Shown here one piece after another: positions 2,766 through 14,427 of a stretch of 32,449 nt of DNA. The position numbers and the translations under genes are program-made. The notes under the pieces were generated by a model. That model did not search any database, was not told where the DNA came from, and saw only the letters and a program-made list of their open reading frames with translations. This stretch comes from a virus (lineage: Duplodnaviria > Caudoviricetes), in the IMG/VR virus record IMGVR_UViG_3300032116_000830, positions 1 through 32,449 of that record, one strand, 5' to 3'. Position 1 is the stretch's first letter; each line of letters starts with the position of its first letter.

Positions 2766-3080
2766 TTAATCACCACTCTCATAAGACGATACGAAAGCTT
2801 GCAGGAATTGTAATTGCTGTTGCCATGTTTGCTTTTTTCTTGGCTCGCGCGGCATGAAGTCCTCTGGTTTAAATGGTCTACCTTTGCTTCTGTTTGCATT
2901 GGCAATAACTGAACATACTAACGCAAATCTATAATGCTCACGCTTGGCATTCTGCTCATAAGCTTTGACCAAAAAAATATACTCTTTTAAAGTTAAACGC
3001 CACGCATCATCTGGACTTAAGCCAATGTTAGTTACTCCATTTGCCCAAAGCTCAATAATGCGCGGCGGTTTTAGTTTGGG
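2766..3080 (-). CDS. Tail assembly chaperone, gpT-like part reached by -1 frameshift
   Basis: Frame is open from the C_CCA_AAC slippery site (3074-3080): PKLKPPRIIELWANGVTNIGLSPDDAWRLTLKEY...KGRPFKPEDFMP. Lies between gpG and the tape measure gene. Confidence 0.85.
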   Translation of the reverse strand, partial: PKLKPPRIIELWANGVTNIGLSPDDAWRLTLKEYIFLVKAYEQNAKREHYRFALVCSVIANANRSKGRPFKPEDFMPREPRKKQTWQQQLQFLQAFVSSYESGD

Positions 3081-3394
3081 TTTTCTTCCGCTTCCTCGCC
3101 TGTGTCTGTTGATGTTTGTACTAGTTTATTAATTTTGGTGGTTATCTCCTGCATGTTACCCGTATGGATTAACCTACCTACTTGCTCAATCGTTAATGTA
3201 TCATCCTCATGTATCAAGCATGCCCACAGTAAAGCGCGGATGGATGTAGCTGAAATGTTATCGCCTATCGCGAACGCGCTTTTGCCTGTAGCATCCTCAT
3301 AAGCCGCCATCGCATTTAAATCAAATCTTAATGACCTTGGTTTATCTAAGTCTATGATAATCTCATTGTTTCTTTGTTTGTTTCGCGGCATCAT
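3071..3394 (-). CDS. Tail assembly chaperone (gpG-like)
   Basis: LRFDLNAM...IRALLWACL motif, position after the tail tube gene, ends at a slippery heptamer. Confidence 0.85.
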   Translation of the reverse strand: MMPRNKQRNNEIIIDLDKPRSLRFDLNAMAAYEDATGKSAFAIGDNISATSIRALLWACLIHEDDTLTIEQVGRLIHTGNMQEITTKINKLVQTSTDTGEEAEENPN

Positions 3395-5623: not shown

Positions 5624-5807
5624 GTTTCCTCCCCCTTGTTTTTATGACTTTGGTTTCATATTCAATCTCATCTGTTTCAAATTCAAGCAATCCAAGAGTA
5701 GCTAAATATTTCGCACGCTCGATGTCATTTGTTTCATATTCTTCGCCTGCTAAATAGTTTTTATTATCTGATTTGCTGTGGAATCTGTGCTTGACGATGT
5801 ATTTCAT
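5601..5807 (-). CDS. Small head-associated protein (68 aa; likely start MKYIVKHRF)
   Basis: AGGAG upstream of 5807. YLAGEEYET...RAKYLATLGLLE resembles small proteins found between capsid and connector genes. The ORF-track extension to 5966 overlaps the GT gene. Confidence 0.65.
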   Translation of the reverse strand: MKYIVKHRFHSKSDNKNYLAGEEYETNDIERAKYLATLGLLEFETDEIEYETKVIKTRGRKHVNRELD

Positions 5808-6501
5808 ACTGTTTGACATCCTCCTTGCGATATAAATGAGTAGCAGGATAATGCGTATCCATCGTAACTTGATAGCCATGTACTGCGGCTCGAATGCAGA
5901 ATGCTCTATCTTCCCACATGCTGAACGATACATTGTGAATCGGATTATAATTAACGCCTGACTCAATCACATCACGACGAATTAATATGCATGCTCCGCT
6001 ATAACCAACTTTCCATATTTCCTTTTGCTTGTACTTGCGCCAATCCTTATCTTTGCCATATCCGTAAAAATCATAATCCCACGCATTCGGCATCAACTCT
6101 TCACCAGGGTTCCATGCTGTCCAAAATATCTCGGATATTATTGGCTGATTCTGCATTACTAAATGTTGTAAAGTATTTGGATGTAGAATTAAATCGGAAT
6201 CAACTAGAAAAAAATAGTCATAATTTTCACTCAATGCTTTATGCAACAAATAATTCTTCATATTTGTAACATCTTTTAGGTTTTCTTTTTTCCAATGGTG
6301 AGTACTGTTTACCTCGTATTGCGTTTTATTCGTAAATTCCTCATATTGATTTTTATTCAAATATTTTTTTAATTCTGGAGAGTTATGCAAAATAAAAAAC
6401 AAATCTATTTCATGTTCACATTTTAAATTTGCTAATGATTCCAAATAATACTTAAAAATAGTTTCGTCCTGCTTTACTGATGAGCCTATGAGTATCTTCA
6501 T
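5764..6501 (-). CDS. Glycosyltransferase, GT-A fold (GT2-like)
   Basis: MKILIGS first strand, YDYFFLVDSD (DxD), GACILIRRDV, WEDRAFCIRA, HLYR. Confidence 0.88.
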   Translation of the reverse strand: MKILIGSSVKQDETIFKYYLESLANLKCEHEIDLFFILHNSPELKKYLNKNQYEEFTNKTQYEVNSTHHWKKENLKDVTNMKNYLLHKALSENYDYFFLVDSDLILHPNTLQHLVMQNQPIISEIFWTAWNPGEELMPNAWDYDFYGYGKDKDWRKYKQKEIWKVGYSGACILIRRDVIESGVNYNPIHNVSFSMWEDRAFCIRAAVHGYQVTMDTHYPATHLYRKEDVKQYEIHRQAQIPQQIR

Positions 6502-7274
6502 GACTCCACCTTTTGCGCTTGCACTAGCTTGGTATATTCTTCAACGAAATCTTTCTCAAATATTTCCGTATGTCCAAGATGACCGAATTGCAATGTTGTA
6601 TCACAATACATTTTAACTCCCGCTTCTTTAAGTTTTAAGCAGAATGTCAAATCCTCTCCAACATTAGGCAATGGAAAAAAATAAGGCTGTTGAATCTTCT
6701 CGAACGCTGAACGTTTTATAAGTGCGCATGCTAGCCCTGCGCCTTCTATCGGTAATAATCCTTCTCCATACTGTGCAGGTGCTTCAAGTTCTGGTACTCC
6801 GTCTTTATACTCGAATTTAGTATAAAAGCATGGTTGATATGGTTTTACTCGCTTGAATGCTTTTGCTGTCACAAATTCCAAGTTATGACGCAATAACATT
6901 TCTACGCTATTTGGATGGAATGTCATGTCGCTATCAATAAACATTAAATAATCATTTTCACTTTTAACAAATTCATGTGCAATATATTCACGAGCATCAT
7001 ATATGAGAGAATTTGATACCATGCAAAATTCATAATACACATTCTTATGATTAAGAAAAAATATTGCTTTCTCATTAAATTCCTTAATCGAATTGTCATC
7101 ATACTTGTTATTAATTAAATTCAATACAATTTTTTCATTTAATTTTATAAATTCTAAAATTAGATTAAGGTCATAAGGAATATTGAATCTTTTTGAGATT
7201 TTCCTTATAAAACTCTCAAATACTTTGAACTCAATCGGTCGGTGAATCGGAATGCCTATTAGAACCTTTGACAT
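6498..7274 (-). CDS. Glycosyltransferase, GT-A fold, with apparent in-frame insertion
   Basis: KVLIGIP, SLIYDARE, DYLMFIDSDM (DxD), GLACALIKRSAFEK, GEDLTFC, GHLG. Confidence 0.86.
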   Translation of the reverse strand: MSKVLIGIPIHRPIEFKVFESFIRKISKRFNIPYDLNLILEFIKLNEKIVLNLINNKYDDNSIKEFNEKAIFFLNHKNVYYEFCMVSNSLIYDAREYIAHEFVKSENDYLMFIDSDMTFHPNSVEMLLRHNLEFVTAKAFKRVKPYQPCFYTKFEYKDGVPELEAPAQYGEGLLPIEGAGLACALIKRSAFEKIQQPYFFPLPNVGEDLTFCLKLKEAGVKMYCDTTLQFGHLGHTEIFEKDFVEEYTKLVQAQKVES

Positions 7275-9005: not shown

Positions 9006-9599
9006 TCAACCTTTCAACTTTTTTATGATTTCAATTATCGTATTCGGCTCGATTTCGTCAGTGCCTATTGGCGGCTGATTTTCAAGTGATTTGATATATT
9101 CAATTACCATATCCATATTAGCATTTTTAACGTTCTCTAGCAATGAGCGCATTTTCATAATCTTGGCTTTGTCATTGGCGGCGAATGTTACAGGACTAAA
9201 TTCCCACAAACGAACTTCTTTAAGCATTCTAACTCTACGATTTCCCATCATTTTATAATCATCTTTGACCACATCATAACCTATCGACATTTCAGTAATG
9301 ACTCCATCTTTTATAAGTGTCATTGCTTTCTTGCCTGTATCGGTCATGCTTATTTTGGCTTTGACATATAAACCATTGTCATCTTCAATCATTTCCTTTG
9401 GAATTCCAATTGGCTCAGAAGCATCATGTTGCCACAATACTTTAATGCGTCCTTTATTTTCTGCAATAGTCTTTTTAAATGCACCGCGTTCGATGATGTC
9501 ATCGTATGCGTCAATGTTATTAAAAAAACTTGCGTAGCCTTCGAACTCATTATCATTGAGTGCCTTAGTTTCAAATTTAATGGCTTTGAAGTCCATCAT
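9006..9599 (-). CDS. HK97-family prohead protease
   Basis: FEGYASFFNNID...GAFKKT...LWQHD...MSIGY...LWEFSPVTFAAN. Confidence 0.95.
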   Translation of the reverse strand: MMDFKAIKFETKALNDNEFEGYASFFNNIDAYDDIIERGAFKKTIAENKGRIKVLWQHDASEPIGIPKEMIEDDNGLYVKAKISMTDTGKKAMTLIKDGVITEMSIGYDVVKDDYKMMGNRRVRMLKEVRLWEFSPVTFAANDKAKIMKMRSLLENVKNANMDMVIEYIKSLENQPPIGTDEIEPNTIIEIIKKLKG

Positions 9600-10231
9600 G
9601 CATCATCTCCGTATCTTTTTTTAATTTCTTCATTCATAAGATTTTTCATGTACTCCAAACCTCTTGAACCGACTGTGTGCCATTTCATTTGTGCAATTAC
9701 TCCTGCGGGTCGCAAATTCTCATAATGTCTAGCGCTCCACGCTTCCCTTAGCCTTATCGCTTCATTTTGTCTTGGTGTCAATTGGTCTGTAGGAATTTTA
9801 TTTTTTCTAATATCATATAGATGACGATACTGTTCATTACCGAGAATATTACCGCCCAAACTCCAAACCTTCGGATATTTTTCCTTTATCCTTTCCGCAA
9901 ATTCAAGAGGAAATAATTCGTATTTAGAATTTGTTAATGATACTGTTTCATCATCTCCGTGTTGCGGGAAATTCGTAACTTTTTTAATTTGATTTATCAT
10001 AAATATTAATTCGTTGTCATCTATTTCTTCCTCGATATTTCCTGATTCTTCTTCTATATCTTCTAACTCGTCATCTTCTTCCATTTCATCTTCGAAAGTT
10101 TCCCATTGTATTTCACAAACCGCAAATCGCTGTTCCAACTTCCCGAATTCATCAATCATAACTTCGTCGCTCATGCACCTTGTTAAAAATGATTCTTCAT
10201 CTTCTTCTCGTTTTGGTCTTGGTAATGGCAT
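9596..10231 (-). CDS. Hypothetical modular head-region protein
   Basis: MPLPRP...FLTRCM...QRFAVC N-terminal module, acidic linker, globular C-terminal domain. Its stop overlaps the protease start. Confidence 0.7.
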   Translation of the reverse strand: MPLPRPKREEDEESFLTRCMSDEVMIDEFGKLEQRFAVCEIQWETFEDEMEEDDELEDIEEESGNIEEEIDDNELIFMINQIKKVTNFPQHGDDETVSLTNSKYELFPLEFAERIKEKYPKVWSLGGNILGNEQYRHLYDIRKNKIPTDQLTPRQNEAIRLREAWSARHYENLRPAGVIAQMKWHTVGSRGLEYMKNLMNEEIKKRYGDDA

Positions 10232-10232
10232 A

Positions 10233-10793
10233 TCATATTACCCCCGTCGGAGTTTCTTCATAGTATTTTAAGCGCAATAATCCTGTTGTGTCTCCATCTG
10301 CAACAATTCGCTGAATCTTTAATAAATAATTTTCATTCTTTTTTGTGATAAATTCCCACATGTCATAACTATTTTGAGAACCTGCCATTGTTTGCCCGAC
10401 TCCTGTTGAACCGACAACATAATAAACTTTTCTTTTTGTTCCATCTGCTGTAACTGTTGAATTAGTGTAAATCTTTAAACTGCTTGTATTATTCGATGTA
10501 TGGTCACTATTATAAATTGTTACTTGCTGTGGAGATGTTGACTTTGCAACTGTAGGATTGACATATAACCATGCTTTTACTTCGGGTTTGTTTGTTGTTA
10601 ATTCAAAATCTTTTAAATGGCAATTATAAATTCCAGTTTCAAGATGATAATAAAGAGATGTTGTGCCTGTTAAGGTAAATTCTATATCAACATCATATCC
10701 TCTACCGTCATGGATTTTACTGTGTTCAAACTCCATCGTCTTGCGAGCAAATCCGCGTTCCTGTATTGAGTTTCGCATTGTTTCCGAAGCCAT
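10233..10793 (-). CDS. Hypothetical beta-rich protein, possibly virion-associated
   Basis: GGAGGTGA RBS, 186-aa Thr/Ser-rich ORF inside the head module. Confidence 0.65.
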   Translation of the reverse strand: MASETMRNSIQERGFARKTMEFEHSKIHDGRGYDVDIEFTLTGTTSLYYHLETGIYNCHLKDFELTTNKPEVKAWLYVNPTVAKSTSPQQVTIYNSDHTSNNTSSLKIYTNSTVTADGTKRKVYYVVGSTGVGQTMAGSQNSYDMWEFITKKNENYLLKIQRIVADGDTTGLLRLKYYEETPTGVI

Positions 10794-10802
10794 CTAATCA
10801 CC

Positions 10803-11582
10803 TCATATAATAACTTCTATTCGTTTCTGCCTTTCCTGAACTTCACTCACATGATATCGTTCAGTCCACATTTTAATCTTCGTGAATCCCTTTTGACTTG
10901 GTGTCATCCCTGCACTTTCTGCGTATGAGTTTTCATAGTCAAGAGATGAGCCTGTCGCCACAAAATATTGCATTATGATTTCTTTTTTCTCGTATTTTGG
11001 ATTCGGGATTATCATCTGCTTTGTATGGACTTGCCTTTTATGCACGTGTCCCATCAAATAAATATCTGCTAGTACATATTCACTTTGCTTTTGCAATCTA
11101 TTTAGTGAAGTTCCTGCACTTCCGCCATTGCCCGAGCCATGCCATACATTAACTAAATATGACCGTTTGCCAATGACATAACCTACAATCCCTTGATAAC
11201 GCATATACTTATTTTCGATTTCGAGCATCTGACAAAGATATAACGATAAATCAAAGCCACTTGTTTTATATATACGTTCCTCGTGATTTCCTGTTACTAC
11301 TCCATCGATAAGATGACGAACATCATATAATAGATTCTTAACTCGCATCATTTGTTGTTGTGCGTTTTGCTCTTGCTCATATACTCCTGCTCCAACGCTT
11401 TCTTTTGTTGCAGTTTCGGCTAAATCGCCCATTAATATAATTCGTGCTGTTTTATCATTTTTAATTTCTTTGATTTGTTTATTTATAAGTTTAACATCGC
11501 AATGCTCAGAGCCTAAATGCCAATCGCCCAAAGGGTAAAGTGTGATTAACTCTAATTCTGCATCACTCTTTATAATTTTCAT
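10803..11582 (-). CDS. Calcineurin-like metallophosphoesterase
   Basis: GDWHLG, MGDL, GNHE, WHG and GHVH metal-binding motifs. Confidence 0.9.
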   Translation of the reverse strand: MKIIKSDAELELITLYPLGDWHLGSEHCDVKLINKQIKEIKNDKTARIILMGDLAETATKESVGAGVYEQEQNAQQQMMRVKNLLYDVRHLIDGVVTGNHEERIYKTSGFDLSLYLCQMLEIENKYMRYQGIVGYVIGKRSYLVNVWHGSGNGGSAGTSLNRLQKQSEYVLADIYLMGHVHKRQVHTKQMIIPNPKYEKKEIIMQYFVATGSSLDYENSYAESAGMTPSQKGFTKIKMWTERYHVSEVQERQKRIEVII

Positions 11583-11597
11583 GGCTCACCACTTTCA

Positions 11598-11813
11598 TTA
11601 ATTCATTTCGTTTAATTGCTCTAATGATTCTTTTGGAGTAGACATTCTTATTTCATCTTCTTTGACTAAAATAACATAAGGCAATCCTACAAATGCAACT
11701 TCTTCTGATTCAAACATCGGTTCATACACGTCATATCCTCGCCATTTACCAATGTAAGATATTTCATCATATCCTTGTTTTTTTGCAAATTTCAAAATAT
11801 TTTCTTCACTCAT
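11598..11813 (-). CDS. Putative immunity protein for the MuF toxin
   Basis: 71-aa acidic ORF with ATGA overlap directly after the toxin domain. Function inferred from position only. Confidence 0.55.
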   Translation of the reverse strand: MSEENILKFAKKQGYDEISYIGKWRGYDVYEPMFESEEVAFVGLPYVILVKEDEIRMSTPKESLEQLNEMN

Positions 11814-13225
11814 GGCAATTCCCTTTCCATTATATTATTCACTGTATTTAGATTAAACATTTTATCGTCTATTCTTAATATTTTTGGTGGTGTAAATATT
11901 TTTATTTTTCGTGTTGTGAATGAAAATTTAAACTGATTAAAATAGCCTAACAAATCTTCGTAAATTTCTCCTATTTGAGGGTCATATAATCTTAATTCGC
12001 CTCTTGCATTTTTATACATGGTAATAATATGTGCTGTTCTTTTTCTTCCTTTCCACTCAAATTCTAATGTATATCTTTCATTTTTTTGAACAATGTTATC
12101 TATAAATTTTAAAAATTTTTTAGGGCTATCTGCTGTTTTATCAAATAATAAACTTGGCTTTAGTCCAGTTTGTGGGTCTAACCATGCTAATCGTGTATCA
12201 TATGATAATTTTTCCAACATTGAACCTTTAGTATTAGGCAATGTTGTAACTTCAAATCCTCTTAATCTAGCTTCAAACGTTACAACACATGATTGGCAAT
12301 TTATTCTATATCCTTCATCTTTTGAAAAGTTCGGATTAGGTTTACCGTGATTTGCTTCATCAAACGACATTTCTTGACCTCGTTTAACTCCTGCAATTTC
12401 GTCTGGTAATAAAGGATTTTGTATTATTGGCGTTGGATTCTCCTGAAATTCTACTGTTGGTTGTTCCTGCGTTAATCCTGCATAATCATAACCTATCGCG
12501 CAACGACAATTTATAACTTCGCTTGCAGGTAAATTAAAATCGCCTGGAGCTTCTCCGAAAAAGCCATTAACATTAAATAACTGGTCTAATCCTATTGGCG
12601 GATGATTTGCCATCGCTAGATGAGATTCTCTTGTGCTATCGTCAAATGTTGGAATCCATACTTTGTTAAGCTTAGATGATGTCTGTTTAGCTCCCGCCAT
12701 GCTTCCGTAGTTTGACGCGCTAACAACTTCAGTACGTGCGATTGTTTTACTTCTGTTAGGGATGATGTTGTCTAAATACAATCCATCTATCATTAATTCA
12801 GTTTCTGGGATACTTTTTCCTTCTTCAATTGCTTTTGCTACAATTCGTTTTATTTCTTTTTTTGTGGTTTCTGTGATTAAAACTACTTTTTCGGCTGTGA
12901 TGTCGTCAACATATCTCTTTATTTCATCTGTTAAAAAATCAAATCTTTTTTTAGCTTTAATCTCTGGAGCTTTTGACTCAATATCGTTATAAGTACGTGT
13001 TCCAAAGTCTTTGATGATTTCTGCATAAAAAAGTTTAAACATCTTGTGCCACTTATCATAATCTTCATTAATGATTTCAAATATCTCATTGGTCAGATTG
13101 TCATTGTTAAAGTTTTTCTTTTTGATTTTCTTCCTCTGTTCATCAAATGCTTTGGCTACTTCTCGTTCTACTTTAACATAAAACGGATTTCTGATTCGCT
13201 CAAACTGCTTAAAGAGTTTTTTTTT
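11810..13225 (-). CDS. MuF (SPP1 gp7-like) minor head protein with C-terminal papain-fold toxin domain; probably expressed as a -1 frameshift extension of portal
   Basis: RSKTIARTEV...W...DDSTRESH...PGD...INCRC MuF motif, then NCQSC...EARLRG...AHI...YDPQ. Frame is open upstream of ATG 13042 with no ATG/GTG/TTG back through the A9 run. Confidence 0.85.
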   Translation of the reverse strand, partial: KKKLFKQFERIRNPFYVKVEREVAKAFDEQRKKIKKKNFNNDNLTNEIFEIINEDYDKWHKMFKLFYAEIIKDFGTRTYNDIESKAPEIKAKKRFDFLTDEIKRYVDDITAEKVVLITETTKKEIKRIVAKAIEEGKSIPETELMIDGLYLDNIIPNRSKTIARTEVVSASNYGSMAGAKQTSSKLNKVWIPTFDDSTRESHLAMANHPPIGLDQLFNVNGFFGEAPGDFNLPASEVINCRCAIGYDYAGLTQEQPTVEFQENPTPIIQNPLLPDEIAGVKRGQEMSFDEANHGKPNPNFSKDEGYRINCQSCVVTFEARLRGFEVTTLPNTKGSMLEKLSYDTRLAWLDPQTGLKPSLLFDKTADSPKKFLKFIDNIVQKNERYTLEFEWKGRKRTAHIITMYKNARGELRLYDPQIGEIYEDLLGYFNQFKFSFTTRKIKIFTPPKILRIDDKMFNLNTVNNIMERELP

Positions 13226-14427
13226 GCGTTTAAATCTTTCTGTTCTGATTCTTCTGGTATCTGCATACCTAAATCATTAAAAAACACATCGCCGCCTAAA
13301 ACATCATCATATTCAAGCGCAAATCGTGCTTCATTCCGTTTTATTAGTCCATTCTTCCACAATTCCACAGTACGTTTAACTAATGCATCTTGACTCTCTT
13401 TTAATCCTGATACCGCTGATAAATCATAAGTTAATATAAGATTGTCAGCATATCGCGGTAATAAATCACTTGCTAACTTGTCTTTAATTGTTTCCAAATA
13501 TCTCGGGATGATGGTGTTCTCCCAAAAAGATTTGACCGCTTCGTTAAAGTTCGAATATGTCTGTCCTTCTGGGTCACCTACTAATTGAGAAGGAACGCCG
13601 AACGCGCTACAAATTTCTGTTCGATTTAATTTTCTTTGATTGAGAAAATCCATATCAACGCTAGATAATCCTATCGGCTGATATGTGGCTCTATCTGCAT
13701 TCAGCACAAGCGGTAAACGTGCGTTTGTTCCTCCGCCGTATCGCTTGCGCCATTCATCTCTTAAATTGTCGATTAATTCAGGCGATGGATTTTGAATTGT
13801 GAATATTCCCGCAGGAACGCCGCTATTCTGTAATGTGGATTTGTTCCAGTTGACTGCTTCGTTCTCGGTGTCAATGGTTCGACTTAATGCTCGTATTGGC
13901 GATAACCCGTCATATATTTCCAACGGGTCATTAAACTTGCTCCATAGTATTTCTTCCTTGTTATAATAAATCGGCTTGTAAATATCATATTGATAACCAC
14001 TAACAAATAATTCTTTGCTTGGAATCGGCTTCACGTAGTGAGGATATAGCGGAACCATTTGAGTAGGCATAGAAGGGTTGATATATTCGGCATAAAATTT
14101 TCCTTCAATCGCTAGGTACGTTGTCCATAAATCAATAAAATCCCTGCCACTCATAAAGCTGTTAGCTTTAAGATTAAGCATGTCAAGGATAGGATGTTGT
14201 TCTATTTCAATGTTCCTTCCACCGCGCCCACGTCTATATAATAACCATGGAACGCTTGATGTTGCTGAAGCAATTTGAGTAACGCAAGCATAAACCCAAA
14301 CAACCTTATTATAAGCTTCTGTTATATACTGTTTATCCTTCTGAATCGTCCAATAAGGTTGACCGTAGTTCCCTTCGCTCACATATTGATACTTCTGTTT
14401 GCGTAAAAATCTGTCCCAAAAAGCCAC
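13168..14427 (-). CDS. Portal protein (HK97 family); likely GTG start at 14427
   Basis: VWVYACV...HPILDML...GLSPI...NSGVPAGI...EICSAFGVP...TYSN...NEARFAL. GGGGTGA RBS before the GTG. Confidence 0.94.
   Translation of the reverse strand: MAFWDRFLRKQKYQYVSEGNYGQPYWTIQKDKQYITEAYNKVVWVYACVTQIASATSSVPWLLYRRGRGGRNIEIEQHPILDMLNLKANSFMSGRDFIDLWTTYLAIEGKFYAEYINPSMPTQMVPLYPHYVKPIPSKELFVSGYQYDIYKPIYYNKEEILWSKFNDPLEIYDGLSPIRALSRTIDTENEAVNWNKSTLQNSGVPAGIFTIQNPSPELIDNLRDEWRKRYGGGTNARLPLVLNADRATYQPIGLSSVDMDFLNQRKLNRTEICSAFGVPSQLVGDPEGQTYSNFNEAVKSFWENTIIPRYLETIKDKLASDLLPRYADNLILTYDLSAVSGLKESQDALVKRTVELWKNGLIKRNEARFALEYDDVLGGDVFFNDLGMQIPEESEQKDLNAKKNSLSSLSESEIRFMLK

Follow-up and report, generated by a model that had tools for sequence, protein, structure and literature searches.

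The portals of tailed phages are treated as rings of identical subunits, with MuF as a separate partner protein. Phage SPP1 packages few copies of its MuF protein, gp7, which attaches to the portal and helps infection (PMC6316719, PMC5576092). The MuF polymorphic toxins of Jamet et al. (2017; PMC5576092), in whose main text the word frameshift does not occur, are separate genes whose products are thought to bind the portal non-covalently, like gp7, and a short downstream open reading frame (ORF) is regarded as the immunity gene. Portal and MuF may also form a single ORF, as in the Microbacterium EA3/EA5/EA8 and EB phages (PMC7302621). Recoding passages of the literature name (i) programmed -1 ribosomal frameshifts in phage structural genes, namely the tail chaperone G/GT and capsid or tail extensions of T3, T7, A2, A118 and PSA (PMC5009743, PMC10885494), and (ii) transcriptional slippage on a run of nine A's (A9) in Thermus thermophilus dnaX, which gives tau and gamma (PMC5009743, PMC1088944). 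Here we analyse the junction of the portal and MuF genes in a stretch of 32,449 nucleotides (hereafter the window; IMG/VR record IMGVR_UViG_3300032116_000830). It is a tailed-phage fragment from a record estimated to be 47% complete, and its minus strand encodes terminase, portal, MuF, small ORFs, prohead protease and capsid.

Near its end the portal frame reads GCA AAA AAA AAC TCT, with 15 sense codons between the A9 and the stop. The A9 (13225-13217, minus strand) is the sole A/T run of at least nine in the 32.4-kb window and contains two in-phase heptamers, A_AAA_AAA (13225) and A_AAA_AAC (13222). Portal and MuF do not share one open frame: the portal stops at 13170, and MuF lies in the -1 frame, which has no stop between 13273 (the upstream TGA lies at 13276) and 11810, offers 468-469 open codons past the heptamers and carries a PF04233 MuF domain followed by a PF15644 papain-fold toxin domain. 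The earliest ATG, GTG or TTG of this frame is the ATG at 13042, whose pairing with the anti-Shine-Dalgarno (anti-SD) sequence is -1.8 kcal/mol, versus -3.7 to -10.4 for 18 other operon genes. An earlier reading of these letters without database searches (the sequence-only reading) had reported this portal end, this open -1 frame and the poor ribosome-binding site of its first start, all of which we confirm. The single site would yield predicted products of 419 aa (48 kDa) and 872 aa (101 kDa); the plain portal of about 419 aa and the fusion of about 870 aa proposed earlier are supported, as are a start-less MuF frame and a conserved slip site.

For the part of the -1 frame that begins at the run, AlphaFold2, given an alignment of 75 rows, produced a model with a pTM of 0.92, in which the 60 MuF residues preceding any start are predicted as helices with pLDDT 93-98; initiation at ATG 13042 would delete two and a half predicted helices. 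The MuF model matches MuF and minor-capsid models in BFVD, while among solved structures none matched the MuF model and none matched the C-terminal tip by sequence. Close database homologues are annotated about 25-60 residues short, most covering 75-76% of the MuF domain, an annotation that calls for correction.

For the analysis of selection the window's clade supplied 19 distinct loci, among which 17 overlap sequences are distinct, and its 17 full-length members supplied a portal core. A9C is invariant in all 19, the preceding codon being GCA, GGA or GTA. Columns of the portal core that keep a single codon number 0 of 12 for invariant Lys, 0 of 14 for Asn, 0 of 65 for four-fold and 5 of 98 for two-fold positions. 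Over the 12 codons upstream of the run, pairwise synonymous/non-synonymous codon differences amount to 314/650 in frame 0 and 63/870 in frame -1; downstream of it they amount to 433/340 in frame -1 and 83/757 in frame 0. Judged by these counts, the frame under selection is frame 0 up to the run and frame -1 after it. The portal stop stands at the identical codon in 19/19 loci, no start codon in the MuF frame is common to the 19, and in 9 of them a -1 stop lies just 5 codons ahead of the beginning of the MuF frame. A conserved slip site and the lack of a shared MuF start were the outcome that the sequence-only reading had proposed to look for in related phages. Another heptamer, T_TTA_AAC at 13234, was rejected: it is not conserved, being absent from locus L005. 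The A9 is very probably a genuine, selected recoding site, at which either polymerase or ribosome makes the fusion.

In more distant relatives portal and MuF are fused in frame, and a run is retained in the linker that joins them. It is A9 in L025-27, L033 and L114 and A10 in L028-31, L067-71, L115 and others. Two cultured phages, GBK2 and Silence, in which the fusion of 685-700 aa is annotated merely as 'portal protein', have T9 there; relatives of GBK2 have T9, T10 or T7, and L251 has no run. Taken together, the relatives' runs are A9, A10, A11 or T9 and occur in all three codon phases, namely 0 (L123), 1 (L025, L105) and 2 (the others), the window's clade being always in phase 2. Modelling of L033, a natural fusion, places its run at the end of a disordered linker (residues 393-428), directly before the first MuF helix. 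A run of at least nine is present at 43 of 49 distinct junctions of the two nearest portal clades, which we picked ourselves (misses: L038, L039, L085, L109, L116 and L117), compared with three such runs in 317,308 other bases; a MuF-anchored scan found no run of at least eight at 37 distinct separate-gene junctions, many of them from close kin. At 12 in-frame loci the median number of codons to a stop was 3 in the -1 frame (background 7) and 6 in the +1 frame (background 11), a weak signal from related loci and a post hoc test. In quick trees (both trees were of this kind) the out-of-frame clade adjoins in-frame clades, and L109 and L066 are out of frame within the A10 clade. The in-frame portal-MuF ORF of Parageobacillus phage JGon-2020a (L038) stops short of the final MuF motif, and that motif carries on in the +1 frame.

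We propose that RNA-polymerase slippage at the A9 produces both the portal and a portal-MuF-toxin fusion, and give this reading a probability of roughly 0.55. The polymerase would add an extra A at the run in some transcripts; A9 transcripts would encode the plain 419-aa portal, A10 transcripts the 872-aa fusion, and A8 transcripts a portal ending two codons past the run. This would give a mixed portal ring, a few subunits bringing MuF and any tip into the procapsid on the disordered linker, and in the in-frame relatives the same slip would make a short portal instead, as in Thermus dnaX; in either layout one site probably gives both products. Because runs are kept to a length of at least nine, all nine A's are conserved, the phases differ among relatives and no stimulator was found, the polymerase route is likelier than ribosomal -1 shifting at the window's site, though the two may operate together, and both may occur in the family. 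According to the passages on slippery runs, nine A's or T's slip efficiently in vivo, and as ribosomal slip sites in E. coli A_AAA_AAC and A_AAA_AAA are much weaker than A_AAA_AAG (PMC5009743, PMC1088944).

Several points weigh against polymerase slippage, or against slippage in general. Neither an A10 transcript nor the fusion protein was observed. An in-phase X_XXY_YYZ heptamer lies inside every run, another heptamer, C_CCA_AAC, is present at the tail-chaperone junction of this phage, and the predicted tail-chaperone site of phiCbK is A_AAA_AAC (frameshift passage of PMC3556154). L109, which is out of frame and has A_AAA_AAG with six A's, and L245, which has T7, possess runs too short for the polymerase. 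In L008 an ATG at codon +19 of the MuF frame is served by a strong SD sequence (-7.8). A run is often absent from distant in-frame fusions (L034, L035, L038, L089, L090, L094, L119, L122, L125, Brynnie and nine more), and a mixed ring is therefore not required by all phages. No slip run was found at the portal end of the distant cultured phages PB15, Pq0, PHS21, 1N2-2, MD02 and P12026 or of two Manatee Spring records.

Part of this evidence speaks for programmed -1 frameshifting by the ribosome, with A_AAA_AAA or A_AAA_AAC as its slip site. It would give the same products from an mRNA that remains A9, and we regard it as a serious but rather doubtful alternative. Besides the heptamer in every run, and L109 and L245, which could hardly use polymerase slippage, the GBK2 group is consistent with it, as a -1 stop lies 0-2 codons past the run in 7/7 run-bearing loci and +1 stops lie up to 46 codons away. 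Moreover, 23 long ORFs in the window contain 49 in-frame heptamers, and at two sites alone, the end of the portal and that of the tail chaperone, do they precede at least 60 open -1 codons. The heptamer of the second site, at the tail assembly chaperone junction (window 3074-3080, minus strand; ORFs 3071-3394 and about 2766-3080), stands directly before the stop, with 102 open -1 codons, in a canonical G/GT-type layout. However, a single heptamer would not constrain two or three A's of the run, and none of them varies in the 19 clade loci, nor does any of the 19 use the stronger A_AAA_AAG at the run. No conserved 3' hairpin was found in the clade (consensus -0.92 kcal/mol, no two-sided change; the folding did not cover pseudoknots) and no SD-like 5' stimulator, the upstream SD pairing being ordinary and the 3' folding weaker than the portal background in most members. 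From the recoding proposed by the sequence-only reading, a selected slip site stands; a ribosomal slip on A_AAA_AAC is not established, given the nine A's held, the lack of a stimulator and the occurrence of runs in all phases.

That MuF is an ordinary separate gene with a non-canonical or internal start, the run being kept for another reason, is very improbable. MuF genes with their own start are the usual layout in distant relatives and also occur in L085, L116 and L117, the strong-SD ATG of L008 would fit this reading, and an ATC at 13126 in the window has an SD pairing of -5.9 kcal/mol. Purifying selection on frame -1 nevertheless begins at the run, upstream of every candidate start; the -1 stop 5 codons before the MuF frame in 9 of the 19 loci, the helices that a start at 13042 would lose and the in-frame fusions, which retain the run despite needing no start, argue in the same direction.

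We give slightly less credit still to phase variation at the DNA level, in which replication slippage would toggle the phage population between A9 (MuF off) and A10 (all subunits fused). L066, with A9 out of frame (A_AAA_AAG in phase) beside near-identical sister contigs with A10 in frame, would fit it and may be a natural polarity flip or an assembly slip. In contrast, 25 of the 35 loci found by portal have A9C equally far from the stop, and a search with the downstream motif alone, in which run length plays no part, recovered these same 25 viral contigs, which carry A9, and no A8 or A10 form. Contigs from 4/4 DNA runs, three possibly from the source sample and a fourth (X13) that bridges the run, show no indel either, although contigs lose rare variants and a low flip rate would be compatible with these data. 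MuF is moreover under purifying selection even though the clade is out of frame in 19/19 loci. An RNA-run contig (X16) spans the junction with A9 and no indel, but since contigs lose minority variants and RNA libraries may contain DNA, it bears on neither slippage nor expression. The A9 length, for which the sequence-only reading had asked for read support, is no assembly error: homopolymers are error-prone and in-frame fusions exist in the family, but equal run lengths in independent assemblies with portals 73-100% identical, and an intact, selected MuF frame, make an assembly error or a pseudogenised fusion hardly credible.

Table 1. Features of the portal-MuF junction and its cargo (window coordinates).
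Feature	Position	Strand	Evidence
Portal gene, HK97 family, 419 aa, GTG 14427 to TAG 13170-13168, preceded by SD; frame-0 product	13168..14427	-	PF04860, E 1.6e-66; phrog_2662, positions 35-429; SD -6.5 kcal/mol
Slip site A9C, GCA AAA AAA AAC (13227-13216), with in-phase A_AAA_AAA and A_AAA_AAC	13216..13225	-	Sole run of at least nine in window; 19/19 clade loci; no indel in 4/4 DNA runs
Overlap: 15 portal tail codons and stop (frame 0), first MuF helix (frame -1)	13168..13215	-	Codon-difference counts; stop position 19/19
MuF N-terminal 60 residues without start; predicted helices 2-35, 43-53 and beginning of 55-84	13043..13222	-	AlphaFold2; phrog_2468 and phrog_2662 matches upstream of ATG 13042; alignment with MuF start of in-frame fusions
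MuF (gpF/SPP1 gp7-like) domain, -1 frame; Pfam core about 12494-12856	12473..13222	-	PF04233, E 1.2e-7; fold hits on phage minor capsid/MuF models, lowest E 1.5e-12
Papain-fold toxin-like C-terminal tip, PF15644; Cys 12298, His 12031, Asp 11983	11813..12400	-	PF15644, E 3.4e-12; residues invariant in 30/30 aligned homologues
71-aa ORF, candidate immunity protein, overlapping MuF-toxin stop	11598..11813	-	Directly follows papain-fold tip in three distinct lineages; 21 homologues without Pfam family

The cargo of the MuF frame varies. The MuF frame is complete in 17 loci of the clade, of which three have the papain-fold tip, three have other extensions (about 300 aa) and 11 have no tip; the papain-fold tip also rides on many other MuF1 and MuF2 proteins. 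Its Cys, His and Asp, invariant in all 30 aligned homologues, are presumably catalytic, as in papain folds. As 11 of the 17 keep the site without a tip, the slip would serve MuF, and the predicted toxin is a swappable passenger; the earlier suggestion that the purpose is to tether a toxin does not hold in general. The 71-aa ORF follows the papain-fold tip in all three lineages (L001-type, L015 and L020) and nowhere else among the fetched loci, as expected of a candidate immunity gene for the predicted toxin tip. In the distant phage L123 (3667-5414; portal 28% identical), an A9 in phase 0 is accompanied by MuF in the -1 frame with a 270-aa extension, then a 70-aa ORF; in phage Silence (L037, 3463-4705), ORFs of 344 and 64 aa without Pfam matches follow the portal-MuF gene, where relatives have the tip and the small ORF.

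By analogy with SPP1 gp7, the fusion would be a minority product and the slip would fix a low MuF copy number. Fused portal-MuF proteins share a near-invariant linker lysine, and prohead proteases cut after lysine, hence our guess that the prohead protease releases MuF. For the family as a whole we tentatively suggest a homopolymer slip that gives a mixed portal ring, in which few subunits would covalently carry MuF and a swappable toxin into the procapsid (comparable to the packaging of enzymes by Gag-Pol) and the prohead protease may free MuF; lineages would flip the default by one base, retuning the dose of MuF and toxin, and would switch between polymerase and ribosome slippage.

Several neighbouring genes on the minus strand may be mentioned. 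A metallophosphoesterase gene and a phrog_5335 gene (window 10233-11582), located between the MuF cassette and the protease, vary in presence in close relatives. The separate 211-aa gene at 9596-10231 has no Pfam or PHROG match; its C-terminal domain resembles, by eye, the insert between slip site and MuF in the A10 clade (L028-L031, L067-L071 and L109), and the gene is reduced to a 71-79 aa N-terminal part in L016, L017 and L019. Two glycosyltransferase-like genes (Anp1 and GT2-like; 5764-7274), between the capsid region and the head-tail connector, might glycosylate the virion. No integrase was found among the 18 window proteins scanned with profiles, and promoter and terminator scans gave matches at chance level only. 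DNA nearly identical to window positions 12000-14400 occurs in 2017-2024 runs labelled freshwater, lake water and fungus metagenome. The nearest cultured relatives (portal identity 32-39%) infect Geobacillus, Parageobacillus and Bacillus, and for this reason a host among the Bacillota is our guess, and only a guess; a search of genome contigs for the host returned no relative, or only alphaproteobacterial and rickettsial portals.

If the proposed slip is real, the portal joins the recoded phage genes, and it becomes clear how single-ORF portal-MuF fusions avoid having MuF on every subunit. Two phages in culture, GBK2 and Silence, both of harmless hosts, have the T9 form unannotated, which opens the claim to a direct test. 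Recoded phage structural genes, single-ORF portal-MuF fusions and MuF toxins have each been published, and on the accessible literature the proposed slip at the portal-MuF junction is what is new. The sequence-only reading knew of no frameshift described at this junction, and our full-text search agrees, having found no report of slippage there; subscription journals, including the original description of GBK2, were beyond its reach. The word portal is absent from the accessible text of the recoding review (PMC5009743) and of the PRFect paper (PMC10885494), and the frameshift passages of PMC4493119 and PMC3556154 deal with tail chaperones.

Compared with the known systems, the locus combines features of four. 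It resembles the -1 frameshifts of phage structural genes in that a minority C-terminal extension would arise via a slippery site near the end of a gene, with an in-phase X_XXY_YYZ before a long -1 ORF; it differs in that the accounts consulted do not name the portal gene, in the lack of a conserved stimulator (usual, not universal, in that class) and in an extension that comprises a whole second head protein plus its cargo. With the single-ORF fusions (PMC7302621; records of Arthrobacter phage Brynnie, GBK2 and Silence) it shares the order portal, then MuF, with phrog_2662 spanning both; those are annotated as one constitutive ORF, whereas the parts are out of frame in the window, and an unannotated T9 stands in the linkers of GBK2 and Silence while Brynnie has no run. 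In common with the MuF polymorphic toxins (main text of PMC5576092), a MuF1 domain follows the portal gene directly and is succeeded by a C-terminal toxin domain, with variable tips and a small downstream ORF; unlike them, the MuF-toxin of the window has no start and would exist solely as a portal extension. The likeness to T. thermophilus dnaX lies in nine A's within a gene and in long and short products from one locus: the run of at least nine is kept at synonymous positions and, among relatives, does not depend on codon phase, and the in-frame relatives (GBK2, Silence, L025 and L033) share the dnaX layout, each of the two other frames soon reaching a stop. Unlike dnaX, a cellular replication gene, this is a phage head gene, and in the window it is the long product that would require the slip.

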